A stretch of DNA of 32,333 bases from a bacterium. GTDB taxonomy: Bacteria; UBA9089; CG2-30-40-21; SBAY01. Under the pieces are notes generated by a model, which saw only the letters and a list, made by a program, of their open reading frames with translations, searched no databases and was not told the origin of the DNA. Numbering within the stretch: position 1 is the first letter of the stretch; each line of letters begins with the position of its first letter. Of this stretch, positions 2,307-31,643 are shown one piece after another. Location: assembly GCA_040757115.1 (NCBI GenBank), contig JBFLYA010000015.1, positions 1 through 32,333 of the forward strand, given 5' to 3'. A program made the position numbers and the translations under genes.

Positions 2307-5224
2307 GTTTTATCTGAACCATGTGGGATATAAAGGAGATTATCCGGATGGCTCGGGTGATTACTCAGTTTCGTTTTATCTGAACCATGTGGGATATAAA
2401 GAAAAAGAAAACCAGGGGCGAACCCTGGTGGTGGCAGCGTTTTATCTGAACCATGTGGGATATAAAGTCGGTTGGGCAACGCAAGATTGGGGGAGGCTAA
2501 GAAAGTTTTATCTGAACCATGTGGGATATAAAGTCTGAGTAGCATTGTCTATCTTCTGTTTGCCGGTAAGTTTTATCTGAACCATGTGGGATATAAAGAA
2601 ATGAAAGGAACTGGGCGGATGCTATAAAATACTCGTTTTATCTGAACCATGTGGGATATAAAGTGTAAATACTACACTTAAGTCAAGTTTACATAAGTTG
2701 TTTTATCTGAACCATGTGGGATATAAAGTCGGCATGTTTGGTAGATAGTAGGGGTAAAAGAATAAGTTTTATCTGAACCATGTGGGATATAAAGGATAAT
2801 AATAAATCATTGGTATTAGATTGGCGGAGAGTTTTATCTGAACCATGTGGGATATAAAGATGATCTTGGAGGTCTTTCTCTTTTTCTTTTTTCTCGTTTT
2901 ATCTGAACCATGTGGGATATAAAGTTGCCAGGATCTCACCACTCCCACTGAGGGGATAGCGTTTTATCTGAACCATGTGGGATATAAAGCTACAGCATAT
3001 AGGGGGGCTAACTCGATGTATATGAGTTTTATCTGAACCATGTGGGATATAAAGGTGAATGGAGACTGCGTCGCCCAGCTCGATTTTTTCGTTTTATCTG
3101 AACCATGTGGGATATAAAGCTCATTTGTTACGGGTTATGTTTAGTCCTGATACCCGTTTTATCTGAACCATGTGGGATATAAAGACCCGTGAGATTATAT
3201 CACCGCGCAGGCTCTCCCAGTTTTATCTGAACCATGTGGGATATAAAGTCCCCAAGCTTTAGCGTGGGATCGGAGCGGGGAAGCCGTTTTATCTGAACCA
3301 TGTGGGATATAAAGAATGACCAAGATAAAGAACATTTTTGGGCTATTGGGCTGTTTTATCTGAACCATGTGGGATATAAAGGTAATTAGAATTAGCCGGG
3401 GGAATTTTTTTGAGCAGATGAGTTTTATCTGAACCATGTGGGATATAAAGTGCATCAATTAAACACACAAAAGGTCAACATGCTACTGTTTTATCTGAAC
3501 CATGTGGGATATAAAGGGCAAAATAATACCTGTATCATCAATATTACCTTCAGTTTTATCTGAACCATGTGGGATATAAAGACCATCCCCTATTCAGGGT
3601 TATATCCAATGGTGCCGTTTTATCTGAACCATGTGGGATATAAAGTTTGAAGCTGTTAAAACAGCATTGAAACCTGGAGAGTTTTATCTGAACCATGTGG
3701 GATATAAAGGCGATAGGGAGTAATATAGTAGATATAGCATGGGGGTTTTATCTGAACCATGTGGGATATAAAGTTCTTAAATCTATTAGGGTTATTTCCT
3801 TAACTTTCGGTTTTATCTGAACCATGTGGGATATAAAGCAGGTAAAGTTTTTTCGGTCGATTTTTATGATGGAGTTTTATCTGAACCATGTGGGATATAA
3901 ATATTATGTGCCCACAAATCCTCTGCAAACTTTTCCTAGTTTTATCTGAACCATGTGGGATATAAATAGCATATGTGGAACGTGGACTTGCTCCATAGGA
4001 AAAGTTTTATCTGAACCATGTGGGATATAAATTATGTTATTAGAAAAGGAATTGCAAAAAGTTATTCCGTTTTATCTGAACCATGTGGGATATAAATATC
4101 TATTATATTTTCTATCTGCTTATTATGGTTTAATGTTTTATCTGAACCATGTGGGATATAAATACGCTAACATAGCCACGCCCAGTGCCACCATAACCTG
4201 TTTTATCTGAACCATGTGGGATATAAATTTTGGTCAGGTGTCAGTAAAAGACACTAACAACAAGGTTTTATCTGAACCATGTGGGATATAAATATTCAGT
4301 ACAGTGATTACTGGTTGTATTCGTTATTGGGTTTTATCTGAACCATGTGGGATATAAATATTNNNNNNNNNNNNNNNNNNNNNNNNNNNNNNNNNNNNNN
4401 NNNNNNNNNNNNNNNNNNNNNNNNNNNNNNNNNNNNNNNNNNNNNNNNNNNNNNNNNNNNNNTCTCTGGCACTGATAAGAGATGTATCTTCATCAGTTTT
4501 ATCTGAACCATGTGGGATATAAAGTTCTCAGTTCGTTGAATAATAGCTTTTTGCACAGGGGTTTTATCTGAACCATGTGGGATATAAAGAGGAATTTACA
4601 TCAGCAGGGCTAATACCAGCGGGACCGTTTTATCTGAACCATGTGGGATATAAAGCTTATTTTTGATAAGTGTATCGCAGGTCAAGTTGGAGTTTTATCT
4701 GAACCATGTGGGATATAAAGTTTAAATAATAGAGGATACCCTATTCAATTATCAAAGTTTTATCTGAACCATGTGGGATATAAAGAAAGAAAAATACCCG
4801 CATCTTCTATCCGCGGACACGTTTTATCTGAACCATGTGGGATATAAAGAAATTACTTACGAGGCGATGCTATCTGCAAAAGCGGGTTTTATCTGAACCA
4901 TGTGGGATATAAAGATTTTAAATTCATTTAGTCCGTCTGTGTCCAGGCTCGTTTTATCTGAACCATGTGGGATATAAAGTATAGGCTCTCTAATTTTTTC
5001 AAATACTTCTCTTGAGTTTTATCTGAACCATGTGGGATATAAAGTGTGTCATCCTTACTATGGAACAATGCTTCTCCAGGTTTTATCTGAACCATGTGGG
5101 ATATAAAGTTATTAATTACGATATTGTGGCTAAGTTCAGCTGGAGTTTATCTGAACCATGTGGGATATAAAGAATGGCACTTGGACGGGGACGGCGAGTA
5201 ATCCCGAGTTTTATCTGAACCATG
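2307..5224 (+). CRISPR. CRISPR array, 29-bp repeat GTTTTATCTGAACCATGTGGGATATAAA(G/T), at least 44 repeats, spacers about 35-40 bp
   Basis: 32 repeats counted before the N gap and 12 after it; penultimate repeat (5145-5172) lacks one T; last repeat (5208-5224) is truncated to 17 bp. Confidence 0.98.
4363..4462. other. assembly gap (100 N) inside the CRISPR array
   Basis: Run of N. Confidence 0.99.
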
Positions 5225-16233: not shown

Positions 16234-16277
16234 TCCTTCTCCTCAAATCAGAAGTCAGATTTTAAAGGTATTGTCAT

Positions 16278-16361
16278 TCTGTCCTCTGCCCTCTGCTCTC
16301 TGCTCTCTGCCCTCTGTCCTCTGTCCTCTGCCCTCTGCTCTCTGCCCTCTGACCTCTGTCC
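16278..16361. repeat. 12 x TCTGNYC heptamer tract between gspE and gspF
   Basis: Abuts the gspE stop codon; short opposite arm TCAGAAGTCAGA near 16248-16259. Confidence 0.92.
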
Positions 16362-17888: not shown

Positions 17889-17919
17889 ACTATTCTCCTG
17901 TAAATAGCCGATGTCAGAC

Positions 17920-18179
17920 GTAGGGCAAGGCTTATGGTTTTTGCAAAATCAACTTCCACTTTTTTGGAATACCATAAAATAAATTAAAAATCAAACATCA
18001 AAATGTAAAATTACAAATCAAAAATCAAAATATTCTCCAGCTACTTTGTTAATTTACAAGTATTTTTGCATTTTGCATTGTAATTTTGATATTTGCATTT
18101 TGATATTTACATTAAAGTTCTTCTTGCTATCGCTCTCCCCAAAAGAGGAACCTATTTATGAAAAAGCAATTAGCCTTGC
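17920..18179. repeat. REP-like palindrome interrupted by a nested inverted-repeat module
   Basis: GTAGGGCAAGGCTT...TAGCCTTGC halves about 240 bp apart; inner AAATCAA / TTTGATA-type heptamer arms at about 17985-18110. Confidence 0.6.
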
Positions 18180-18201
18180 TGCTCAAGACTGTTCTGCTGC
18201 T

Positions 18202-19974
18202 CTATTTTTCTTCTCCAGTAATAATTTTAGGGGTAAGTAAAATAACAAGTTCTGAGTTAAGTTTCTTAGTCGTCTCTTTCTTAAATAAATAGCCCAGATA
18301 TGGGATATTCCTTAAGAAAGGTACTTGAGCAATCTCCTTGGTTTTCTCTTCCTTTACTAACCCACCAATAACAATGGTCATCCCATCTTTTATCCTTATT
18401 TCGCTTTCTACATTAGAAGTCTCTACGACAGGGAGGTTATCATTTACATATCTTGTTACAGCACTTACTTCGGGTTTTATCTTTATAGTAACAAAATCAT
18501 CCTCACTTATCTTTGGGGTAACAAAGAGTTTTACGCCCACATCAATATAAGTTACCTTTTGCACCTTAATCGGATTCCCTTGTTGTGGAACTACAGTCTC
18601 TTCAGTGATATAAGGCACATTACTTCCCACTAAAATTTTTGCTTCTTCCCCGCTTATTACTGCTACTTTGGGGGTAGAGAGTAATTTTGTATCTCCAATA
18701 GTCTTTAGTGCCTCTAAGAGTATATGATAATCATCGGTATTTAATACCCCTGCCTCTATCCGAATTCCTGCCTCACCTTGGGTTAACGCACCAAGGTTAG
18801 TCTTGATATTCAAGTTATCCGTCTGCTGGGCTAAATATTCCCAGTCTATCCCAAATTTAAACTCATCTGATAAATTTACCTGGATAATTTTTGCCTCAAT
18901 TACTACCTCTTTTGTCTGGGTATCACAGGTAGTAACAATCTCTTTAATCCTCTTTATCTGACAAGGCAAATCACTTACTATAACCTTATTTGTCCTTTTA
19001 TCCATCTTAACTGTTCCTATCTCTTTAGTTAGCTCATCCTTTATCTTTTCGACTATTTCTTCTGGTTTAGCATAGTTAAGGGTAAAAATTTCTGTGCTCA
19101 GCTCGGGATAGTTATCAAACTCTGTAATCAATTGGGAAATTACCTCTACCTTTTCAGATATATCCGTAACAATAATCTTCTTATTTAAAGAATCCGTTTG
19201 AAGTTTTCCATCTCGGGATAGGAGACTCTTTAATACTGGTTCTAACTTCTGGGGTTGGGCATAAGTAAGGGTAAAAGTCTTTGTTATTGATGGGGTATCT
19301 AATACTTTGATAATCTCTTGCATCTGCTGGATTAATTCTGGTAAATCAATAATAATAAGTTTATTTGCCCGTTCATCTATAAATATTTTACCGTCTCTGC
19401 TCTTTACTCCATTAAGTAATTGAAGGATGGAAGTCGGTTGAGCATATTTTATTTCAAGCATTCTAAGTATTTTGCGGTCGTTCGCCTTTTTACCATATAA
19501 CTGTTCATATTCATGATTAGCCATAACCTTAATTAATTCATCTTTCTTTTCATAAGCTAAATCATTCACCTCGCAGATGACCTTTAATGCATCTTCTACA
19601 CTTATCTCCTCTAAGAATATCGTAACTCTACCCTGCACATTCTTGCTGGCAACTATATTCATTCCACCTTTTTTAGCCAGGATATTAAGCACATCGATTA
19701 TTTCCATATTTTTGACATTAATGGTTATTTTATTACTCAGGGTGCGTTTAGTTGGGGTTTGAATTTCGGCAGGAGGTATCTCTATTTCTCTATCTGTTGT
19801 CGGTAATGGAGGTTGTGGTCTTTCTTGTTCTAATCTCAGTTGTTCCTTTATTTTTTCCCGGACCTCTTGAGGTAATGTCTCAGGAGGAAGTGGTATTTCC
19901 TTTGATTCCTCTGCTTGAAGAGGGGATAAAGATAAAACGATAAGTAGACATAATAATATTTTTAATTTATTCAT
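18202..19974 (-). CDS. gspD: secretin GspD/PilQ family with STN and N domains
   Basis: Signal peptide from MNKLKILL, repeated N domains, VVIEAKI, LLSTPK, DVGVKLFVTP, IVIGGL, VPFLRNIPYLGYLFK, ELVILLTP. Confidence 0.95.
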   Translation of the reverse strand: MNKLKILLCLLIVLSLSPLQAEESKEIPLPPETLPQEVREKIKEQLRLEQERPQPPLPTTDREIEIPPAEIQTPTKRTLSNKITINVKNMEIIDVLNILAKKGGMNIVASKNVQGRVTIFLEEISVEDALKVICEVNDLAYEKKDELIKVMANHEYEQLYGKKANDRKILRMLEIKYAQPTSILQLLNGVKSRDGKIFIDERANKLIIIDLPELIQQMQEIIKVLDTPSITKTFTLTYAQPQKLEPVLKSLLSRDGKLQTDSLNKKIIVTDISEKVEVISQLITEFDNYPELSTEIFTLNYAKPEEIVEKIKDELTKEIGTVKMDKRTNKVIVSDLPCQIKRIKEIVTTCDTQTKEVVIEAKIIQVNLSDEFKFGIDWEYLAQQTDNLNIKTNLGALTQGEAGIRIEAGVLNTDDYHILLEALKTIGDTKLLSTPKVAVISGEEAKILVGSNVPYITEETVVPQQGNPIKVQKVTYIDVGVKLFVTPKISEDDFVTIKIKPEVSAVTRYVNDNLPVVETSNVESEIRIKDGMTIVIGGLVKEEKTKEIAQVPFLRNIPYLGYLFKKETTKKLNSELVILLTPKIITGEEK

Positions 19975-19980
19975 AAGTGC

Positions 19981-20552
19981 TTCTCCTGAAAATAGTTTTT
20001 TCACGCAAAGGACGCAAAGGTAATTTTGTCCTTATTTTTCTTTGTGGTCTTTGCGTGCTTGGCGTGAAACTTCCTTTCTCTTGAAAAATCGGACTTCTTT
20101 TCTGTTTTTTTATCTGCTCAATCCGCTAAATCCGCTTACTACTTATTTTCATCTTCATTTGTGCCCACTCACGGTGGGCATGAGCGTTTCCCCTGAAAAT
20201 AGTTAATTAGAGATTAGAGATTAGAGAATTAGAACCTGCACTCTTGCTAATCTCTAATCTCCAATCTCCAATCTCTATGCTCAATTTTCATCCCCCTTTG
20301 TGCCCACTCCCTGTGGGCATGACCGTTTCCCCTGAAAATAGTTTTTTCACGCAAAGGACGCAAAGGTAATTTTTCCCTTATTTTTCTTTGCGGTCTTTGC
20401 GTGCTTGGCGTGAAACTTCCCTTCTCCTGAAAATCGGGGTTCGGGGTTCGGATTTCGGGGGTAGGGGATTCTTTTATTCCCGAGCCCCGAGTCCCGAGCC
20501 CCTTAATTTTCATCCCACTTTGTGCCCCGCCAGGGCATGAGTGTTTCTCCTG
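19981..20552. repeat. array of five hairpin cassettes separated by TTCYCCTGAAAAT junctions
   Basis: Six junction copies, three copies of a 50-57-bp core, one cassette duplicated. Confidence 0.85.
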
Positions 20553-20562
20553 CCTACTACAT

Positions 20563-20590
20563 ATTATATATTAATTTATCCAGATGTCAA
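20563..20590 (-). promoter_or_regulatory. sigma70 consensus promoter of the gsp operon
   Basis: TTGACA (20590-20585), 16 nt, TATAAT (20568-20563). Confidence 0.75.
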
Positions 20591-20611
20591 CTATAAAGTA
20601 AAAATTTGAAA

Positions 20612-21820
20612 TTAAAATTCATAATTTATACCTAAGCTAAAATTAATAGAATGATAATTATACTTATAAGTTTGCTCATAGGCTGTGTTGGATTTTGAGA
20701 TGTCATAATAGACCTTTGCTTTTAAATTCCATCCTTTAGAAAGAGGATAAGAAGTCAGGAGAGTAAATATGTGCTCTTGCTTATCCAACTTTTCTTTTAA
20801 ATAATTTCCTTTTTTGTCCTGGAGGGGCCTTCCTTTATATTTTCGATAAATATAGTTGTAATTTAGATGACAGGGTATATCTTCACAGAGACGAAGAATT
20901 AAGGAGGGTGAAATTTTATACTCATTATAATCAAAAAAGTGAAGATAAAGGACAAGACTTTTGGTATCATAATAGTTTTGATTAGATATTCTTTGATTCA
21001 ACTCAATTGTTAATTTTACTGCTATCCAATCTTTTAGATTATTAACAAAACCTATCTCTATCCAATTGATTTTTTCCTTCCTTTTCTCCTCTGAAAAAGG
21101 ATATTCCGTTCCACTTTTAGGTTCTATTTGAACCAGATCATCTATGTAGTCTTTCCACAAATGAATATAATTAAAAGAGTAAATTTTCTCTCTACCCTGT
21201 ATATCTACCCCAACCCATATCTTATGTCCATAATAGTCTTCTACCTTATGAGGACCTTTTTTATAAGTTTTATAATATAACCCTTCATAATAAGGGTATC
21301 GTCGAAGATAGAATTTATATCCTCCTTCAAAGATTGCAGGGAGTCTGGATACATAGCCTTTATATTCTATTCGCTCTTTTATTCCCCAATCATAATAATT
21401 ATACAGACCACTGGTTAAACTTTCATCATTTGTGCCTTTTATTTGCTCCTTAAAATATTGAAGGGAAAGTTTACTTTCAATTTTATCATTGAATCTTCGT
21501 ATATAACCTAGACTTACAAATTGATCCAATAGCTTATCTGTCCAGACTACCCCTTCTTCTGTCTGGGTTTGATCTGTTTCTTCGTAAGATATTTCATAAA
21601 AAGGAATAAGAAGATTGCTTTTATCAAATTCAAAAGGTAACCCAATATTCAACTGAAGGTTAATCCCTAAAGATTTATCTTCTCCCCTTAGTTTGTAATA
21701 TCCTCCACTAAAATCTGCATTAATTAAAAAGGACTCCTTTAATGCTGCCCAGGCTGGTATATTAAAATACAGGAGTCCTAAGAGTAGTGTCCAAAATAAA
21801 ATCATTCTTTTTATAAGCAT
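20612..21820 (-). CDS. putative outer-membrane beta-barrel protein
   Basis: Signal peptide ending AWA, Tyr-rich alternating strands, C-terminal LGINYEF BAM-type signal. Confidence 0.75.
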   Translation of the reverse strand: MLIKRMILFWTLLLGLLYFNIPAWAALKESFLINADFSGGYYKLRGEDKSLGINLQLNIGLPFEFDKSNLLIPFYEISYEETDQTQTEEGVVWTDKLLDQFVSLGYIRRFNDKIESKLSLQYFKEQIKGTNDESLTSGLYNYYDWGIKERIEYKGYVSRLPAIFEGGYKFYLRRYPYYEGLYYKTYKKGPHKVEDYYGHKIWVGVDIQGREKIYSFNYIHLWKDYIDDLVQIEPKSGTEYPFSEEKRKEKINWIEIGFVNNLKDWIAVKLTIELNQRISNQNYYDTKSLVLYLHFFDYNEYKISPSLILRLCEDIPCHLNYNYIYRKYKGRPLQDKKGNYLKEKLDKQEHIFTLLTSYPLSKGWNLKAKVYYDISKSNTAYEQTYKYNYHSINFSLGINYEF

Positions 21821-21833
21821 AGAAAATTACCTT

Positions 21834-22757
21834 TTAGTACAAAACACCAAACAGATAAGTGTTAAATCCTCCCCCTACTAAAGATTCTTCACTTGCGTAT
21901 CTTAAAAATATCTTTGGTACCATAATAGTATCAATTGTCCTGCCTTCAAACTCTGTTGCTGTATAGATGGTCTCAATATTATAATCCCTTTGCAATCTTT
22001 CAATCTCTCTTAAACCTGATGGTTCCCAGCTAATGGAGTTACCTTCATCATCGATGATATAACTTTCTCTTTTTAAGAAGGTATTATTCCACCAGAAGTC
22101 TCGATTACTCCATTTTCCACCATTAGGATATTTACCGTTACTCCAATTTGGTTCATGAGCCTCAAAAGAAAAAGACTCAAAGTCAACCTTTAGTTTATCA
22201 TTATTATTCACTCGCCAGACAACTTTTTCTGGACATAAGATCCACCATTCTCCAGTTTTTTCCTTCTGGGCATTAAAAAGGTCCATTACCTCAGGTTTTT
22301 CACCAGTCCATTCATACTCTACTGAATCAATGGTGTTGGATAGATGGATAGTCTGTTTTTCTGCATACCATTCTGGATAACCTGGCCAATCCCATCTAAA
22401 GGCTATCTGAGTTATATCTTCAGGTAAATCTTTATTAAATTCTTGTAAAAACCAGAGAGAATTCAAGCTTCCTTCACGATGAGAAAAGCTTAGAAATTTA
22501 ACCTGGTCAGCCTGAGGTCTGAGCACATACTCCTCTACCCTTACCCTATTGCCGTGTATATCAGTAAGCACCTTTTCTAACTGGGCATCATATTGTCTTG
22601 TAATTTGAGTCTCCTGTCTATCAAAGGATATATCACTCCTCTCCTCTGCTATCTGGGTTCGATATTCAGCCCTTTCAGCTAAACCCAAAGCATAAGTTAA
22701 ATTACACCCAACTAAAATCATAATTCCTGCACTTCCTAAAACAAATAGTTTCTTCAT
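21834..22757 (-). CDS. exported hypothetical protein
   Basis: 307 aa, AGGAGG RBS, N-terminal signal peptide, Trp-rich. Confidence 0.8.
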   Translation of the reverse strand: MKKLFVLGSAGIMILVGCNLTYALGLAERAEYRTQIAEERSDISFDRQETQITRQYDAQLEKVLTDIHGNRVRVEEYVLRPQADQVKFLSFSHREGSLNSLWFLQEFNKDLPEDITQIAFRWDWPGYPEWYAEKQTIHLSNTIDSVEYEWTGEKPEVMDLFNAQKEKTGEWWILCPEKVVWRVNNNDKLKVDFESFSFEAHEPNWSNGKYPNGGKWSNRDFWWNNTFLKRESYIIDDEGNSISWEPSGLREIERLQRDYNIETIYTATEFEGRTIDTIMVPKIFLRYASEESLVGGGFNTYLFGVLY

Positions 22758-23765: not shown

Positions 23766-26700
23766 TTAATAAGTTTCCAGTATAGTTTTCCATCCAGAAC
23801 CATATAAACTTTCCACTTCTTTTAAATAATTTTGAAGTTGTTTTTCCCCCAACTTTATAGCACTTGGATTATTTGGTTTTAATTCATAAATAATCTTTTT
23901 TTCAAGATCAATGAAATCTACTTTTTTACCGCTTGGCAATCTAAATTCTTTTATCCTAATTCCTTCTAAAACTTCATCAGCTTTAAAAAGTTTATGGATA
24001 GCACGACCTTTAGCGATTGCTTCGGCAACTTTGGGATTAGCAATGCCTCGCTCTCCACTCTTTACAGCTTTAAGTGCCGCGCCAATTTTTTCCGCAGCCT
24101 TTTCTCCCGCCCTTGCTGTTTTAAGTGCTACGCCAGCGCCACCTGGAACACCTGGAATAAAGGTTGCCCCTAAATCAACTATAATTGCTCCAGCGCCAAT
24201 CCAACTTGGCGCCATAGCAAACTCTACAACACCAACACCCAAGCTGGTTACATCCCAGACAGTCTCTGCTGCCTCTCCATCAGGGTCAACATACTTTAAT
24301 GGATTATTAATTCCATAGGCATAAGGATTCAATCGTTGTGGCTCCCGCAGAATTCGTTGTGATGGAACACGCTCAATCGCTGGATCTGAGATAATAAATC
24401 TACCTAATTCAGAATTATAGTACCTTGCTCCATAGTAGTATAATCCTGTCTTTTCATCAAATCTCTTACCTGTAAACCCTATCTTGTAAGCACTTCCTGG
24501 AGAAGCCTTACCACCAAAAGGATAATAATCCTGAGTGGTATAATTATCATCTAGACTATTGGTAATCACACGAGGAGAGCCAAGATAATCATTATGATAA
24601 TAGTAAGTTTGGTACTTAGTGCTCGGTAGGGGATGTTCAACTCTTGCTATTACTTGTTCATTAGCATGAATATAGAAGATATTATCAATAGGTGTTAGCG
24701 AAGTAATATCAATAGTCTTTAGTTGCTGGAAATCCTCACTAATTGTTATTATCTCAATATCATCTATATACCAGCCTTCATAATCGTTATACCACCCATC
24801 TACTGTATCAAAACTAAATTTAAGTTTTATATTATTTATAGTATAAGGTGATATATCGAAAGATTCCTCATGCCAATCTTTATAACAGGGACCTTCGTTA
24901 CAATCATTGTAAAATATCCGATGCCAGGATATACCATCATAAATCTCTACCCTCATATTATCATAGTCTCCATAGGAATAAGATTCATGTTGCCATCTTG
25001 TCTTGAATTTTAAGGTAGCATTATTTACAGTGGTCAGATCAATAAATGGTGAAGTTAACGCACCAAAATTCCTATTTCTACCAGTATCATAATTTGTTCC
25101 ATTATTATAAGCAAAACAGTATTGAGAGCTATAATTTTTGGTTTTAGAGCGATTCCACAAACCATCATATAACCAGAGATTATCCTGCGGTGCTTCCTCT
25201 TTTTCAAAATCAGCATTAAAGGAAGATGGTTCAACTCTAACATTATCTATATACCAACCTTCATAATCGTTATACCATCCATCTACCGTATCAAAACAGA
25301 ATCTTACTTTTATTAGTTTACCGGCATAAGCTGAAATATCCAATAATTCCTCATGCCAATTTGTAGATGCCTGTCCTTCATTACAATCGTTATAAAATAT
25401 CCGATTCCAACTTTTACCATCCCATACCTCTACTTTTATGTTATCATAATCTCCATAAGAATATGATTCATGTTGCCAACGGGTCCAAAATCGTAATTTA
25501 GCCGTTGTTACCTTGGTCAAATCAATAGTAGGTGAGGTTAAAATTCCAGAGTTTCTTCCACCAGTATTGTAATTAGAGCCATTGTTATAGGCAAAGCTAT
25601 AATTAGAATTATAACCTTTACCCTGTGCCCGATGCCAAAGCCCAGTTGTAGTCCATACATTTGGCTCAGGTAATGTTTCAAAATTGTCTTTAAATAAAAC
25701 AACCGATTGAACGGTTTTTGTGCTAAAATTCTCTTCGTAAATTATCTCTCCTCCAGCATTATAATGATATAGAGCAACTAAAGTAATTGTTCCATCATTA
25801 GTAAATTTCTTAACCCTTTTCCCATCTCCATCATATACATATCCCTCAAGCCACTTTCCATCTTGATTAACCTCGACTAATCTATTTTCATAATCATATA
25901 AATAGGTAAAAGTGATTCCATTATAGCTCTTAGATTTTAGGTTGCCATTATCATAATATGTATAATTATAAAGATTATCTGAGATAAGGCGGTTAGGATG
26001 TGAAGCATAATATGTGTAGTTACGAATAGAGGTGCCTGATGAATCTTGAACTCTTGACCATGTCCGATTTCCTATTTCATCATAATCATATTCTATTTTT
26101 AGATTACTTGTAGGATTGTAATCTATTGAGATTAGCCTATCTATAGAATCATAATCATATACTACAAATGGAGTGTTAGTCTGGACTAACTCATTATATT
26201 CCTCCTTAAGATTTCCTGCTGGCTCATACTTGTAATACCTGTGGAAGATAGGAGAGGTCTTAACTACTGTTACTTTCTTCATCCAACCTCGAGGATAATA
26301 GTCATAGTTAGTTATAAACTGATTATTATAAGTGATGGATGAGATATCCCCATTAGGTTCATAAAGGTATTTTTCAACTATTTTATTCAATCCTTCTACT
26401 TCAATAAAATCTACCCGATTGAAGATATTATAACTATAGATAATCTTTTTATTAGAAGGGGTAATTATCCAGTCAATATTACCTGCTGAGTTATAATGAT
26501 AGGTAGTAGTATATGTTTGACCTACTCCATTTATCTTCCTTCTTTGTTGAATTAACCTATTACACCTATCATAGCTATAATTAGTTACTCCTACATCGTC
26601 TATCATATTTGTACGATTTCCAGTACCATTTATTCCTTGATCGTAGGTATAACTTACCTTTTGAATAAAGTCTTCGCTGGACTGTGGATTGTTTACTTTC

Positions 26701-29700
26701 GGATCATTTATTGGGTCACTACCAGTGTAATTTAATATCCCCTTTGCTATCACTCTATCCAACTTATCATATCTATATTCTACCCAATTACCTGCCTTTT
26801 TCTGTTCGGCATCTCGACTAAACCTTAAATTGCCATTTAAGTCATATTGATACTCCCTCCTTCCACTGTCTAAATGGTCCACAGCAAGTAATCTATTCAA
26901 TGTGTCATAAGTATATTTAGTCTCATGGCCATCTTTGTCTTGAATTATAGTCAGGTTGTCTAATATATCATAGGTATAATTAGTAGTAAGATTATAAGTC
27001 TCTCCTTCGTCCGGAGAGTCTTCCTCTACTTTAACTAACCTACCTAATTTATCAAATGTAGTTCTCTTATAATGACCATTTTCATCTTTAGTGGTTACCA
27101 GATGGAATCCAGCATTATCATTCCTATGGGTAATAGTCACCACGCCAGTGGGCTCTGGATAGATAATCTTGTAAGTTCTAAATAATGAATCATAGTGATA
27201 TTCCGTATAGGTATTTGGTCCTTCTGATTCAATGTAAGGAGAATATTCCTTTTTTATCTTTCCAATCTCGTTATATTCAACCTTACTACATACACTTTCC
27301 CCTGAAGAGGTATAATTTATTGTAACATCAAGTAGTTCCTCACTTGCTGTGGAAACACATCCTTCCAGATATACCTTCCAGCGCAAGTATCTTTTAACTG
27401 GTGAATTAATAATTCCTACAAATTTACCATTTTGCCAGTGTCCCGTTACTTCCTGAGCTTTTGATTCCTCCCAGGTAAACTCACTCGTATCACTACTTTG
27501 GGTTTTAATTTTAATCGATATCATAGGCAGTCCGTGAAAATCTACATTTGCAGAAAAAGTCCCATAATTATGCAATGTAGAACCAAAATCAATCAATGGA
27601 GAAAGAAGTGAACCTAAAGAGACATAGATTAAACCACTAAGATTGAAAGAAAAAGAGGGATTTGAAGGGCCATGCCAGCCATCCCCATCCATATCTTCAA
27701 AAGCAAATGTCCTAAGAATTATCTTATTTGAATCTAGACTAACTAACCCACAATAATTTGAATCTTGACTTGACCACCATGGATTAGATGCACCAACGCC
27801 ATTAGAAGAATAACTTTTAATCTGGGGAGAAGATATAAAAGAGGGAAAGAAAACATATTCCATTGTATATTCATGCACATCTTGATTAGTCCACAGTCTC
27901 CCATCAAAAAACTGTTTATTTCGATGGCCACATACGCGTTCACTTGTTTTTCTAAGCCCACTCTGGGCTATTTCTTTGGTAACAATACTTCTTTTAACAG
28001 TTCCTGAATTGGTTATATCAATTCCTTCACCTGCACATCCCTTCCATTCTGTTTTATTGTTCCATGTCTTTGTGTGAGATATAATTGTATTTGTATCATT
28101 TGTTTTTGTTTTAGTTTTTATCAATTGCCCCAGTCCATTATAATATTTAGTGGTTTCTTTTTTTATTTCATTATTTATCTTTTCAGAGATGATAATCCTA
28201 TTCAAATCATCATCAGAGGAAAAGTTTCCATAATGATAACTATATTGAATAGTTGGAGAATCAAGGGTATCTTCTGGCTTTATTATTTTCTCTAATCTAC
28301 CAAAGATATTATATCTATAAATAGTCGAATTCCCATTAGCATCTGTTAAAGTATCTATATCTCCATTCTCATTATAATATGTATCTACATAATGTCCTAA
28401 GGCATTTTTAATACTGGTACAATAGGCATGTTTTAATTCACTGGCACTATTACTTCTTGGATTATCATTATCACCAAAATAGTAATAGGTAGAATTGCCA
28501 TTAGCATCCGTTTTTTGTAAAAGATTACCATAGGCGTCATAGTCAACATAAGTAGTAGTACATGTATTCTCTCCAGCATCATATTCTTTATCTCCATCTT
28601 TATCTAACCACCTATATTCTGACACTGGATATATCTGAATTCCTTCAGTATCATCAAAATCTTTATATAAAGTAATCCTTCTATTTGCTAATGTATAATT
28701 GTTAAGTTTTTGGTCTTGGATTGTTACTGTCCCTACTTGATTTATCATATGTTTATTTTTCATATCATCATAATATTGAAATGCATAGGTGTTTTGTGTT
28801 ACTCTATTTCCATCATTTCCATGTTCGGTCATAGTTCCCACTAAACCATTTATTGGATTATAGAGATAATTTATCTCTTGATATGTGCTTACGGTTCCAA
28901 TTGTAACATTTCCAGATGCAGACCAAGTAAAAACTACACCTTCTGGAGGGTTTGGATACCACTCTTGAATCCAATCTCCAGCAATATCGTATATATCCTT
29001 TAACACATAACATTTTGCTTTAAAACCATCTGTTCTATTTTCTATAACCTGCATTCCTCCCCAATAATTATTTGCACTAACAGATAGTTGTGGTGGTTCG
29101 TTAAAGGTTATACCATAGGAGACATCTACTATTGCCCAAACATTGTAGATAGCTAACTCAACCCACCAGATACTTACCTTTTTATTAGAGCGTTCTTCTT
29201 GAGCCCCTCTACTTCCGTTCTTACTTCCCGAAAGATATCTTGTTTCAATACTCTCTACCCCATTATATGCAGTTTTATAGGTATTTAATTTTGCCCAACC
29301 ACTGGTTAATTTTTCCTTTCCACCACTCCATGTAGCCTGGTCTTCAAAGGTATATTTATTTTCAACTATTTTAATCGCTTTATCTTCCTGGGTGTAATAA
29401 GTTATCTTTGTTAATAATCCCCGTCTATAATCCATATCATATTGCCATTCATCGCCTTCATTAGGATGGGTATAGGCATTTGTAAATTCATGAACACTAT
29501 ATCCAGAAGGTCTGGCTGTAGAATTATTAGAGTCATAGCCTGGAATGACAGTAACCTTACAGTAACCTACATAACTGTCAGCTTCATGACTACCAATATA
29601 AATTCTGTCATTAAGTGACTCACAAGGAGGAGGTTCTATAGGTGTAGCACCACTACTTTCTCCATAATTATTGGCATCTCCATCCCCTTCCTCTAAATCA

Positions 29701-31643
29701 TAACCCTTTACATTATATAGATATCTAACAATTTGTTTGTTTCCAAGACCATCTGAGATGGTTATCGTTTTTACCCTTATTCCACCCCCATATTGAGTTC
29801 TATAATCATTATCTATAACTCCCCATAATCCCTCATTTCTACCAGTTCCTGCCGCTTTATTTCCTACATGGGCGTATCTATCTGACTCATACTCCCATTC
29901 AATTGTTCCACCAGTAGGATAAATTACCTTTGTTAAAGACCATGCCTGAGGAATAATATTTTCCAGTCTACAACTGGAATTATGATTATCTATTGAACCA
30001 TTGGAATAATAATAACCCCAGCGATCCCATTTATACTTATCCCAGGTTGGATTTTGGGAATAATATTCAAATCTTGTTGGAGGTAAAGCATTACCTCCAT
30101 TTTTGCCTCCTCTACCATATTCTGTAATTTTTGATAAGGTTAACTTGCCTACAGGGGATTCAGGAGCACCAGAACATAACGGATTGGAATTATTATATTC
30201 GCAATAAATACTCTTAATAATCTCAGAAGAATTATTTTTATTATATAATTGTATTTCTGCTAACTTCATAGGAGGGTGGTTACTTCCATTAGAAGTTGCT
30301 ACAAAAGATGCTTTATGTGTAGGTGTTTCTATTGAAGTCAGATGAGCTAATTCTCTTTTGCCCCATGAGGAAAAATATGTTTTAAACCCTTTATCATTTC
30401 TACCTTCATATTCCCCTCCATCAGAGGGATTATGAAAATTATACTCACCATCAACTTGATAATTAAACTTAACCCAGTTACCTTTATCATCCCCACCATT
30501 ATCAGGAATTAAATCTCCATTACCATCAATATAATCTGGAGAAAGAATAGCTGTTAATAGCCATTTATATGGGTATGGGTCAAGGAATTCTGTTTTAAGC
30601 CTTCCTTTTGTATCTATATCATCTATAATTCCAGGTACTTTCCCCTCAAATCTTGTCTGCCACCCTCCAGATTTTACTAAGAGTGGTTGAGCATAAACAT
30701 ATTTGGTACCATCTTTTTCGGTAATAACAAATTTTTTTATCCCGTTAGAAATAGATGCAGACAATTCATACTCTATCCTTACAGCATCATCCACTTCAGA
30801 ATTAGAAGATGTTTGTCCACATGTACGTTGTAGATGGAACTTTCTACTATTAGGACTTCCACTTAATACCAATTTATTGCTCTTACCTATTCCTGAAAGA
30901 TAATATAAATCAGGTGTTGCTCCATCTCGAGGGTCTTCATCCTCTAAATTATGATGGTTGGTATATAAAAATCCACCATCTGAAAACTTTTGATCACGAA
31001 TATCTATATCTGTTTCTCCTACACTCACACTTCGACCAGAAACATAAGGTTTTATTTCAGTCCCATCATTATTACCCCAACTTACACTAAAACCCATTCC
31101 TCCACTAATAAAAAATTGGAAAATTCCCTCGATTATTTGTTCATACCACTTCCTGGGACCAACTTCTATTTGTCTAAAGAAGTGTACATTTTCTTTCCCT
31201 TTCCAGTAATCATCAGGCCAACTTACTACCTCTCTTGTAATAACTCCTGGACATAAATCAAATCCTAATCCTACCCACGATGCCATTTGATTGACTCTAA
31301 TTCCTGCCTTGTAAGTTAGTTCAACAGGATAATCTAATTCTCCTCGACCAGGTACTGTAAATAGTGGAATCTTCAGGTTCATATCGCCAGTATAAAGATC
31401 AACTGTAGATTCATCCAGACTAATACCCTTTGGAGTAAAATTATAGATTTCTGGTTCACTGCCAAAAACTACCTGAGTTCCTACTACCCATGTTGAGACA
31501 CAAATAAAGCAGGCAATTAATTTTAGCCTGCTTAAAAAACTTAAAACCCATTTTAACATCAATTCCCACCCTCCACTTAAAACTCCTTTCATTCCGTAAC
31601 CTCTCTCTCTCTTATACTTACAACTCTTATTTTGTTTTAACAT
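23766..31643 (-). CDS. giant Rhs/YD-repeat polymorphic toxin with C-terminal PD-(D/E)xK nuclease (Tox-REase-9-like)
   Basis: YD repeats; core GFTGKRFDEKTGLYYYGARYY and NPYAYGINNPLKYVDPDG; tip H...KEFRLPSGKKVDFID...IYELKPNN...QL..Y; start may be 31643, 31592 or 31559. Confidence 0.92.
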   Translation of the reverse strand: MLKQNKSCKYKRERGYGMKGVLSGGWELMLKWVLSFLSRLKLIACFICVSTWVVGTQVVFGSEPEIYNFTPKGISLDESTVDLYTGDMNLKIPLFTVPGRGELDYPVELTYKAGIRVNQMASWVGLGFDLCPGVITREVVSWPDDYWKGKENVHFFRQIEVGPRKWYEQIIEGIFQFFISGGMGFSVSWGNNDGTEIKPYVSGRSVSVGETDIDIRDQKFSDGGFLYTNHHNLEDEDPRDGATPDLYYLSGIGKSNKLVLSGSPNSRKFHLQRTCGQTSSNSEVDDAVRIEYELSASISNGIKKFVITEKDGTKYVYAQPLLVKSGGWQTRFEGKVPGIIDDIDTKGRLKTEFLDPYPYKWLLTAILSPDYIDGNGDLIPDNGGDDKGNWVKFNYQVDGEYNFHNPSDGGEYEGRNDKGFKTYFSSWGKRELAHLTSIETPTHKASFVATSNGSNHPPMKLAEIQLYNKNNSSEIIKSIYCEYNNSNPLCSGAPESPVGKLTLSKITEYGRGGKNGGNALPPTRFEYYSQNPTWDKYKWDRWGYYYSNGSIDNHNSSCRLENIIPQAWSLTKVIYPTGGTIEWEYESDRYAHVGNKAAGTGRNEGLWGVIDNDYRTQYGGGIRVKTITISDGLGNKQIVRYLYNVKGYDLEEGDGDANNYGESSGATPIEPPPCESLNDRIYIGSHEADSYVGYCKVTVIPGYDSNNSTARPSGYSVHEFTNAYTHPNEGDEWQYDMDYRRGLLTKITYYTQEDKAIKIVENKYTFEDQATWSGGKEKLTSGWAKLNTYKTAYNGVESIETRYLSGSKNGSRGAQEERSNKKVSIWWVELAIYNVWAIVDVSYGITFNEPPQLSVSANNYWGGMQVIENRTDGFKAKCYVLKDIYDIAGDWIQEWYPNPPEGVVFTWSASGNVTIGTVSTYQEINYLYNPINGLVGTMTEHGNDGNRVTQNTYAFQYYDDMKNKHMINQVGTVTIQDQKLNNYTLANRRITLYKDFDDTEGIQIYPVSEYRWLDKDGDKEYDAGENTCTTTYVDYDAYGNLLQKTDANGNSTYYYFGDNDNPRSNSASELKHAYCTSIKNALGHYVDTYYNENGDIDTLTDANGNSTIYRYNIFGRLEKIIKPEDTLDSPTIQYSYHYGNFSSDDDLNRIIISEKINNEIKKETTKYYNGLGQLIKTKTKTNDTNTIISHTKTWNNKTEWKGCAGEGIDITNSGTVKRSIVTKEIAQSGLRKTSERVCGHRNKQFFDGRLWTNQDVHEYTMEYVFFPSFISSPQIKSYSSNGVGASNPWWSSQDSNYCGLVSLDSNKIILRTFAFEDMDGDGWHGPSNPSFSFNLSGLIYVSLGSLLSPLIDFGSTLHNYGTFSANVDFHGLPMISIKIKTQSSDTSEFTWEESKAQEVTGHWQNGKFVGIINSPVKRYLRWKVYLEGCVSTASEELLDVTINYTSSGESVCSKVEYNEIGKIKKEYSPYIESEGPNTYTEYHYDSLFRTYKIIYPEPTGVVTITHRNDNAGFHLVTTKDENGHYKRTTFDKLGRLVKVEEDSPDEGETYNLTTNYTYDILDNLTIIQDKDGHETKYTYDTLNRLLAVDHLDSGRREYQYDLNGNLRFSRDAEQKKAGNWVEYRYDKLDRVIAKGILNYTGSDPINDPKVNNPQSSEDFIQKVSYTYDQGINGTGNRTNMIDDVGVTNYSYDRCNRLIQQRRKINGVGQTYTTTYHYNSAGNIDWIITPSNKKIIYSYNIFNRVDFIEVEGLNKIVEKYLYEPNGDISSITYNNQFITNYDYYPRGWMKKVTVVKTSPIFHRYYKYEPAGNLKEEYNELVQTNTPFVVYDYDSIDRLISIDYNPTSNLKIEYDYDEIGNRTWSRVQDSSGTSIRNYTYYASHPNRLISDNLYNYTYYDNGNLKSKSYNGITFTYLYDYENRLVEVNQDGKWLEGYVYDGDGKRVKKFTNDGTITLVALYHYNAGGEIIYEENFSTKTVQSVVLFKDNFETLPEPNVWTTTGLWHRAQGKGYNSNYSFAYNNGSNYNTGGRNSGILTSPTIDLTKVTTAKLRFWTRWQHESYSYGDYDNIKVEVWDGKSWNRIFYNDCNEGQASTNWHEELLDISAYAGKLIKVRFCFDTVDGWYNDYEGWYIDNVRVEPSSFNADFEKEEAPQDNLWLYDGLWNRSKTKNYSSQYCFAYNNGTNYDTGRNRNFGALTSPFIDLTTVNNATLKFKTRWQHESYSYGDYDNMRVEIYDGISWHRIFYNDCNEGPCYKDWHEESFDISPYTINNIKLKFSFDTVDGWYNDYEGWYIDDIEIITISEDFQQLKTIDITSLTPIDNIFYIHANEQVIARVEHPLPSTKYQTYYYHNDYLGSPRVITNSLDDNYTTQDYYPFGGKASPGSAYKIGFTGKRFDEKTGLYYYGARYYNSELGRFIISDPAIERVPSQRILREPQRLNPYAYGINNPLKYVDPDGEAAETVWDVTSLGVGVVEFAMAPSWIGAGAIIVDLGATFIPGVPGGAGVALKTARAGEKAAEKIGAALKAVKSGERGIANPKVAEAIAKGRAIHKLFKADEVLEGIRIKEFRLPSGKKVDFIDLEKKIIYELKPNNPSAIKLGEKQLQNYLKEVESLYGSGWKTILETY

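Follow-up and report, generated by a model that had tools for sequence, protein, structure and literature searches.

The stretch of DNA analysed here (the window; 32,333 nucleotides, contig JBFLYA010000015.1 of assembly GCA_040757115.1, from a bacterium of the GTDB lineage UBA9089) carries on its minus strand an operon for a type II secretion system (T2SS), in which gspD, encoding a secretin (Pfam Secretin, 9.5e-46; Secretin_N, 1e-29), is followed by the T2SSE and T2SSF genes. The gspD start codon (ATG at 19974) is separated from a consensus promoter by about 570 bp, and this leader is occupied by a row of hairpin-forming repeat units. A preliminary description had read these units as an ordered array of cassettes, inserted at the ribosome-binding site by an undescribed integration system with an integron- or CRISPR-like logic. 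Our analysis suggests, with a probability that we put at about 0.82, that the leader consists of non-autonomous mini insertion sequences (mini-IS) stacked head to tail, comparable to transposable elements of the miniature inverted-repeat type (MITEs) and derived from an element of the IS110/IS1111 family. On this evidence the array does not represent a new integration system but selfish DNA of a known kind, in an unusual form.

Anatomy of the gspD leader

Coordinates and sequences of the leader are all given on the minus (gspD sense) strand. The promoter stretch (20590-20563) is unique in the genome and agrees with TTGACA-16-TATAAT at 12/12 positions. Directly after it comes CAGGAGAAAC, followed by five units that each close with ATTTTCAGGRGAA. 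A conserved core, TTTGTGCCC-loop-GGGCATGA, has three matches in the window (20158, 20297 and 20519) and none in 100 shuffles; the repeat-filled interval described at first is real. For the junction motif TTCYCYTGAAAAT, with at most one mismatch allowed, the window holds six matches (shuffles: mean 0.89, maximum 4). Five of them, at 19981, 20076, 20188, 20327 and 20422, divide the leader as first described, and the sixth lies at 17893, in front of gspE; the supposed partial junction at 20545 is the left CAGGAGAA.

The core has the layout GAAAC-N3-CATG, hairpin, CACAAA-N4-GATGAAAAT, its 3' part reading in full CACAAA-N4-RATGAAAAT. The picture of cassettes made of a core plus a tandem-repeat module holds for the three of the five units that contain a core and fails for the other two, which are near-identical, core-less ACGCAAAGG hairpins. 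Two repeat pairs mark these resemblances, one of 116 nt (19972-20087 and 20318-20433, 91% identical) and one of 60 nt (20145-20204 and 20284-20343, 90% identical), and the third core lies at 20502-20552. The interiors of the units are hairpins whose inverted arms are built of 7-9-nt tandem repeats, namely ACGCAAAGG (twice), ATCCGCTAA, ATTAGAG/CTAATCT and TCGGGGT/CCCGAGC. As RNA, the leader is predicted to form a row of hairpins (folding z = -9.45 relative to shuffles). With 569 bp, it is the sixth longest of 290 such arrays in the genome. The individual features are listed in Table 1.

Table 1. Features of the gspD leader and adjoining spacer, in the order of the gspD sense strand (SD, Shine-Dalgarno sequence; IS, insertion sequence)
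Feature	Position	Strand	Remark
Sigma-70-type promoter-like site TTGACA-16-TATAAT, genome-unique	20563..20590	-	
Left target copy CAGGAGAAA, presumed native gspD SD; GAAA shared with first element	20544..20552	-	compare empty sites
Core 1, IS left end: GAAAC-ACT-CATG, hairpin CCCTGGCGGGG, CACAAA-GTGG-GATGAAAAT	20506..20547	-	
Module hairpin, GGGGCTC/CCCCGAA heptamer arms	20435..20505	-	
Junction ATTTTCAGGAGAA (IS right-end motif)	20422..20434	-	
Core-less ACGCAAAGG hairpin unit, copy 1; 16 near-full-length genome copies	20340..20421	-	
Junction ATTTTCAGGGGAA	20327..20339	-	
Core 2, hairpin CCCAC-AGGGA-GTGGG; 73.6 bits	20284..20329	-	covariance model
Module hairpin, ATTAGAG/CTCTAAT heptamer arms; core 2 plus module has 13 near-full-length copies	20201..20283	-	
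Junction ATTTTCAGGGGAA	20188..20200	-	
Core 3, hairpin CCCAC-CGTGA-GTGGG; 71.3 bits	20145..20190	-	covariance model
Half module with AGCGGATT repeats, second arm missing	20089..20144	-	
Degenerate junction TTTTTCAAGAGAA	20076..20088	-	
Second core-less ACGCAAAGG hairpin unit; identity with copy 1, 95.7%	19994..20075	-	
Last junction ATTTTCAGGAGAA, predicted to supply the working gspD SD, 6 nt before ATG	19981..19993	-	
gspD (secretin), ATG at 19974	18202..19974	-	
gspD-gspE spacer filled by another dispersed element ending ATTTACAGGAGAA at the gspE SD	17889..18201	-	

A dispersed family at translation starts

The genome from which the window comes (G000; 4.3 Mb, 462 contigs, 36.8% GC, the window being contig C57) was compared mainly with that of a sister species in the same genus (G001), and two further genomes (G003 and G004) represent two other genera of the same family. 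As the preliminary description had proposed, a covariance model of the core (R1) was used to scan genomes. Built from 37 distinct copies and run on 25 genomes of the phylum, it gave at least 150 matches each in G000 and G001, 34 in G003, 21 in G004 and 0-4 elsewhere, with a match in 11 of the 25. The core pattern itself matches G000 80 times, against 2 for the reversed control. In the core hairpin, pairing reaches 98.6%, and compensatory changes affect three pairs, in 12, 9 and 5 of the 37 sequences. All units have the same orientation, and the 159 core-bearing ones in G000 span 93-183 nt (5th to 95th percentile). A near-full-length partner exists for 143 of these 159, and for 32 the identity with another copy is 99% or more, which points to recent copying. 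The five longest interiors (305-362 nt) contain no open reading frame (ORF) of more than 57 aa; gene-carrying cassettes, which had been anticipated, were not found.

These counts bear directly on the concern, raised with the first description, that the core might be absent elsewhere and that the array might have arisen by local tandem duplication of one repeat unit or by faulty assembly. The two ACGCAAAGG units do match each other best (95.7%), and, in the assembled contigs of DNA runs that were compared (three runs from one groundwater study), no independent contig spans the array among the Logan contigs of the probable source run, which end within the repeats. However, all five window units have near-full-length relatives on other contigs (89-97% identity; 16, 16, 13, 4 and 2 copies), and the unitigs that span junctions have single-copy depth (283 for 20127-20214 and 219 for 20348-20455, with 303 and 267 in the flanks). 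Moreover, comparable arrays reach 789 bp elsewhere in G000, and multi-unit arrays are present in G001. We therefore consider duplication or misassembly very improbable.

The junction is closely associated with translation starts. Its exact form, ATTTTCAGGAGAA, occurs 145 times in G000 and never in the control, and with up to one mismatch the counts are 385 and 19. Of these 385 junctions, 117 have a core directly after them, and after 91 an ORF of at least 60 aa starts within 12 nt; the junction thus appears to supply the Shine-Dalgarno sequence (SD) of about 90 genes. Genes were approximated by 3,143 ORFs, a crude set; of the 290 arrays obtained with it, 178 point in the same direction as the downstream gene and 59 in the opposite one (p = 5e-15), and 66 directly abut a start codon. 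In G004 (genus g4) the junction reads ATTTTYAGATGAAA and the left boundary ATGAAAC. Among the 30 loci drawn from 65 matches in this genome, 10 of 28 junctions without a core behind them have an ORF of 60 aa or more that begins with the ATG of the motif, and in about one-third of the sites inspected (loci L137-L166) the ATG-AAA of ATTTTYAGATGAAA is the Met-Lys of the downstream gene. In this genus, the element would rebuild the start codon instead of the SD.

It is conceivable that, besides their mobility, the stacked hairpins are kept for a role in the mRNA of gspD and some 90 other genes, such as stability, attenuation or translation control. The orientation bias (178 to 59), the consistent rebuilding of the SD, the strong predicted folding of the leader and the start codons supplied by the element end in the other genus would all fit such a role. 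However, guided insertion combined with purifying selection would alone produce both the bias and the rebuilt SD, and the arrays turn over fast between sister species, the gspD of G001 having none. We regard a retained mRNA function as rather unlikely.

Comparison of the sister species reveals the insertion events themselves. The gspD genes of G000 and G001 share 92% DNA identity, and in G001 the gene is preceded by a 60-nt spacer without an array. Alignment of 40 G001 stretches to G000 yielded 58 length-discordant gaps, 19 of which hold core or junction motifs. A clean empty partner was found at four loci (L106/C411, L097/C162, L090/C33 and L056/C441), all at GGRGAAA-like words. In the clearest pair, L106/C411, the empty site reads TTGGAGAAAAGAATG and the filled one TTGGAGAAA + (CGCTCATG-hairpin-CACAAAGGAGGATGAAAAT-module-ATTTTCAGGAGAAA) + GAATG; the mobile unit is thus core plus module; it follows the native SD, which is copied anew at the unit's own end. 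At L097/C162 the insertion went into the right end of an older unit, at L090/C33 two units lie at the word GGGAGAAA, which is not the working SD, and L055/C51 differ by one additional unit within an array. Insertion occurs exactly after GGRGAAA, with GAAA at both ends, and the unit closes with ...ATTTTCAGGRGAAA, so that the site is rebuilt. Successive site-specific insertion at an SD-containing site, with regeneration of the SD and its spacing, had been postulated from the window and is supported by these empty and filled sites.

Other elements of the cassette hypothesis did not survive the comparison. At L053/C28 the same gene is preceded by one unit in one genome and six in the other, so that cassette number does vary between species as had been supposed. 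The shared unit is the second of the six; insertion therefore took place on both sides of it and is not polar, which removes the basis for calling the array ordered. At several loci, G000 and G001 contain wholly different units. A new integron- or CRISPR-like cassette system, in which a recombinase of its own would stack units at an attI-like SD site, could account for discrete, co-oriented, stacked units in variable number, and the outer (ATTTTCA/TGAAAAT) and inner inverted repeats of the core are loosely attC-like. Boxes of attC elements, however, have the form R''/R' RYYYAAC ... GTTRRRY at cassette boundaries. The unit boundaries here read GGRGAAAC in the sense and GTTTCYCC in the antisense direction, the latter with pyrimidines where GTTRRRY needs purines, and the core therefore does not read as an attC R box. 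Integron cassettes usually carry an ORF and insert in a polar manner, with an intI gene, attI and Pc at one end of the array; here the units have no ORF longer than 57 aa and insertion took place on both sides of a shared unit, an intI gene not having been searched for. The CRISPR analogy fares no better: where near-identical repeats should alternate with unique spacers of even length, the supposed 'spacers', 56-83 nt long, belong to dispersed repeat families, the best CRISPR-DR match in the region reaches 20.7 bits in Rfam against a threshold of 35, and a genuine CRISPR array with a different repeat lies elsewhere in the window, at 2307-5108. Since, in addition, the unit ends equal those of an IS110-family element (see below), we give a new cassette system very little credence.

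The genuine CRISPR array (minus strand) consists of 42 repeats of 29 nt, which match the Rfam family CRISPR-DR43 at gathering score; its spacers measure about 36 nt, and an additional diverged repeat lies near 5145. This array has no relation to the one at gspD.

The parent element and its candidate guide RNA

The origin of the core became apparent in metagenome contigs. The exact 33-nt core has no match there; a degenerate pattern matched at least 123 loci, of which 80 were retrieved. These contain 82 cores, 65 of them with at least three stem pairs, and the stems are diverse, with compensating changes. Just downstream of the cores and on the same strand, 9 of 52 ORFs encode DEDD_Tnp_IS110 (PF01548), six of them together with Transposase_20 (PF02371). 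The left part of one of these loci, L203, runs ...ACATTT/GAAAC-ATT-CATG-hairpin-CACAAAGGAGAATGAAAAT (the slash separating flank from element), followed by 87 nt and a 405-aa transposase; its right part is a non-coding region of about 210 nt and then ...TTAATTTTCAGGGGAAA/TGTTTC. L209 is built in the same way, and both run from flank/GAAAC...core to ...ATTTTCAGGGGAAA/flank. It follows from this structure that the core is the left end and the junction the right end of an insertion sequence (IS), with GAAA at both ends. The ends of the window units (core; ATTTTCAGGRGAAA) match those of L203 and L209.

The element is also found in the genome itself, on contig C90 of G000, as a decayed copy, 5'-truncated and frameshifted. 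It shares 68% transposase identity and a homologous non-coding region with L203 and closes on the right with ACATTTTCAGGAGAAA. Right-end fragments of the IS also lie at contig ends, two in G000 and about seven in G001. The G000 assembly, with its 462 contigs, breaks at repeats, and assemblies of this kind typically lose multi-copy IS bodies; no further transposase copy would be expected if these bodies were lost from the bins. PF01548 occurs in 13 of the 25 phylum genomes, and its co-occurrence with core counts is uninformative.

Elements of this family that use a seekRNA or bridge RNA have a published pattern in which segments of the non-coding region repeat the target and the element end, and a matching pattern is present here. 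Alignment of the non-coding regions gives a fixed scaffold with two variable segments, ...TTACTGGTGG..AGACCCC-(segment 1)-GAAACTGAC...GCACGC-(segment 2)-TTTTTAA...CTGGCT. In six of the six elements compared (G000:C90, G001:C572, L203, L209, L240 and L197), segment 1, before GAAACTGAC, matches, over 8-9 nt, the left flank of the same element together with GAAA, and segment 2 repeats its right end. Segment 1 is ATTTGAAAC in L203 (left flank CATTT/GAAAC), GAAGGAAAC in L209 (CGAAG/GAAAC), TTTGAAAC in L240 (CATTT/GAAAC) and TTATGAAAC in L197 (TTTAT/GAAAC). In both G000:C90 and G001:C572 it is GAAGGAGAAAC, with CAGGAGAAA as segment 2. L171, read separately, likewise has a segment matching its flank, though its non-coding region lies upstream of the transposase gene. 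We consider the transcript of this region a candidate guide RNA.

In the mechanism that we propose, each unit would retain the left end (core) and the right end (...ATTTTCAGGRGAAA) of the parent, whose transposase and guide-RNA region would have been replaced by a hairpin with tandem-repeat arms. Units would be excised and integrated in trans by the DEDD recombinase, directed by RNA from the parent's non-coding region. The target segment of the candidate guide in this genus would read AAGGAGAAA, an SD-like word, which the unit's own right end, CAGGRGAAA, nearly equals; every insert would thus bring a rebuilt SD and a fresh target. Arrays would form because the right end of the element and its target word are nearly the same. 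In the metagenome relatives, the target word and right end differ, and 78 of the 80 retrieved loci have one core (a rough count with a strict pattern). At gspD, the outcome would be a long, hairpin-rich 5' untranslated region (UTR), with the last junction acting as SD.

Besides the missing contig across the array, several observations weigh against this scenario. Two of the five window units have the right end but no core, and their movement is not explained by the model. A search with the C90 transposase detected no intact autonomous copy in five genomes of the family (G000, G001, G003, G004 and G005); since the only resident copy is decayed, mobilization in trans at the present day is something that we infer. 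The predicted fold of the non-coding region shows hardly any covariation, at 1 of 27 pairs, among six sequences of which two pairs are near-identical, and Rfam gave no match in the non-coding regions of L080, L203 and L171. Of the 52 ORFs that follow metagenome cores, the remaining 43 belong to ordinary genes; we read the cores before them as presumed solo or mini copies. An extra junction-like copy at L056/C441 is not explained by one simple insertion. Finally, the 7-mers flanking G000 units agree only slightly more frequently than expected by chance, being identical at 30 of 98 internal units (20.4 +/- 3.3 in shuffles) and at 8 of 61 units that start an array (5.8 +/- 1.6 in shuffles).

A spread by other transposases was also considered, either as repetitive extragenic palindromes (REPs) moved by a Y1/HUH transposase (RAYT), including their mosaic form (bacterial interspersed mosaic elements, BIMEs), or as MITEs of the classical DDE type, which have terminal inverted repeats and duplicate their target site. 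In favour of this, the hairpin of the core is conserved, its flanks are fixed, the core is itself targeted by another IS, as REPs are, and G000 has seven Y1_Tnp matches. Yet no core lies beside any of the six Y1_Tnp loci examined (three of them in G000), the units are all in one orientation without inverted pairs, and the two termini of a unit, GAAAC... and ...GGRGAAA, do not form inverted repeats. We consider such an origin very unlikely.

Further candidates for the nature of the core were rejected. GAAAC and GAUGA recall the hammerhead ribozyme, but no Rfam match near threshold was obtained for a ribozyme or other known RNA; in the region 19700-20900, Rfam 15 gave no gathering-score match, and the 22 matches with E up to 10 are all far below gathering. 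A conserved mini-ORF in the core (SD-ATG ... TGA) was discarded, as frame and stop differ between hairpin-length variants. So was a CsrA sponge with GGA between hairpins, as the left GGA is not kept in G004, which reads CAGATGAAAC.

A second IS ('IS1') has 25 left-end copies at G000 contig ends (e.g. C4:13639-13755, in L001:1527-1643), 22 of which sit exactly between CACAAA and N4-GATGAAAAT of cores. It was rejected as the parent: its 25 copies lie in cores with different hairpins, with two outside cores, which makes it an IS in its own right that uses the core as target. The assemblies lack its body. Its ends are similar to those of an IS110-family element in L081 and carry an outward TTGACA and an inward TATAAT, which would form a junction promoter.

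Related systems, neighbouring elements and significance

The closest described case is MITEPpu9 (ssr9), a satellite of the IS110-family element ISPpu9 in Pseudomonas putida, which has eight copies, targets REPs at an AG dinucleotide and forms circles of its own using the ISPpu9 transposase (PMC12288879). Since the ends of our units are those of a full-length IS110/IS1111-family IS, and such a MITE satellite is in print, the system can no longer be called undescribed. As with MITEPpu9, we see short gene-less units bounded by the left and right end boxes of the parent, a short word common to both ends, tandem copies and a small palindrome (GCCC-N4-GGGC) near the left end of the IS. In contrast to MITEPpu9 as described there, the units considered here number in the hundreds, form arrays of up to six, target an SD-like GGRGAAA with GAAA as the shared word and have mosaic heptamer hairpins as interiors; they are known from sequence alone.

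For the seekRNA/bridge RNA elements ISEc11, ISEc21 and IS621, it has been reported that a mini-IS moves when transposase and non-coding region are provided in trans, and that natural retargeting occurs (PMC11187229), as it seems to have done in the elements described here. Both groups share a DEDD transposase with a Transposase_20 domain, non-coding segments that repeat target flank and element end, and a long non-coding region, which is downstream of the transposase gene in L203 and C90 and upstream in L171. Array building by self-targeting distinguishes our elements from these three as described in PMC11187229, and our guide RNA is a prediction. Unlike in IS1111, no subterminal inverted repeat of 11-13 bp was seen at the typical positions.

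Attraction to translation-initiation signals has precedents. IS900 and IS901 of the IS110 family insert, in fixed orientation, between SD and start codon (PMC2942039, citing Doran 1997 and Inglis 2003). Those are full-length elements in few copies, whereas ours are mostly gene-less minis that rebuild the SD rather than parting it from the ATG. In Beggiatoaceae and cyanobacteria, many genes have TAACTGA heptamers (PMC4679880), likewise repeated in tandem, within a few nucleotides upstream of the start codon; in that account they are simple direct repeats with no known mobile unit, while here heptamers form the hairpin arms of defined mini-IS. Modular interspersed repeats, such as the BIMEs of E. 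coli, are a further group of comparable elements. Another of them, the pneumococcal BOX element, resembles our arrays in being modular, hairpin-forming, clustered, 67-637 bp long and co-transcribed with neighbouring genes (PMC3049150). In the same description, BOX has terminal inverted repeats and target-site duplications, with no known guide-RNA IS parent and no SD targeting. A literature search, with subscription journals outside its coverage, retrieved no report of SD-targeting mini-IS of this family, nor of array building, mosaic heptamer hairpins or SD/ATG regeneration for it.

The other two spacers of the T2SS operon are also occupied, by repeats. The element in front of gspE (within 17889-18201) is a MITE of about 250 nt with 139 matches, its copies being 97-99% identical, and a run of GGGCAGA heptamers (287 matches) precedes gspF (window 16234-16361); both spacers hold different fillers in G001. 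Upstream of the promoter, on the minus strand, are two ORFs with no Pfam match (20612-21820, 402 aa; 21834-22757, 307 aa). They have no counterpart upstream of the G001 gspD, so that synteny breaks exactly at the promoter. A GspD-based search of genome contigs for synteny returned one distant locus only. A 2,625-aa ORF (23766-31643, minus strand) is found upstream of the operon.

The genus harbours further IS with related habits. The element in L081 (G001:C586; G000 contig ends C140, C252, C283 and C432) belongs to the IS110 family, with a 418-aa transposase (PF01548 + PF02371) and, upstream of it, a 415-nt non-coding region that contains CTTCCTCCTT, complementary to an SD; its end ...ATATTATACGAGG lands at the SD of genes (ACGAGG/AGG..ATG). 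A very abundant element with ends GTAACCGTTCAGG...CCTGAACGGTTAC lies at about 155 of 924 G000 contig ends, beside TTAC-like words, and is the main cause of the fragmented G000 assembly. We take its target words to reflect IS200/IS605-like targeting, and some of its relatives (e.g. G000:C11) carry a small gene that presumably may encode a four-helix-bundle protein.

Recombinases of the IS110/IS1111 family and their bridge or seek RNAs are currently in focus as programmable DNA-insertion tools. The roughly 290 arrays of this genome would represent natural retargeting to a very short, functionally loaded word, the SD, or the start codon in a related genus, accompanied by a massive amplification of gene-less mini copies. 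For annotation, the core is a motif widespread in metagenomes and absent from Rfam, by which the left end of one IS110 subfamily can be recognized. It is tempting to go further and to suggest that a guide-RNA recombinase has been retargeted to initiation signals, GGAGAAA in one genus and ATGAAA in another, that its mini-IS carry a replacement SD or ATG and can therefore enter, and pile up in, the 5' UTRs of about 3% of genes while these escape silencing, and that the host may use them as a renewable, RNA-programmed system for installing and varying structured leaders, for instance at the T2SS operon; we consider this extended proposal unlikely. The growth of arrays would have a simple explanation, as donor end and target word have converged and each insert becomes the next target. 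By bringing along a spare SD, a selfish element can occupy the initiation regions of essential machinery, in this case all three T2SS spacers.

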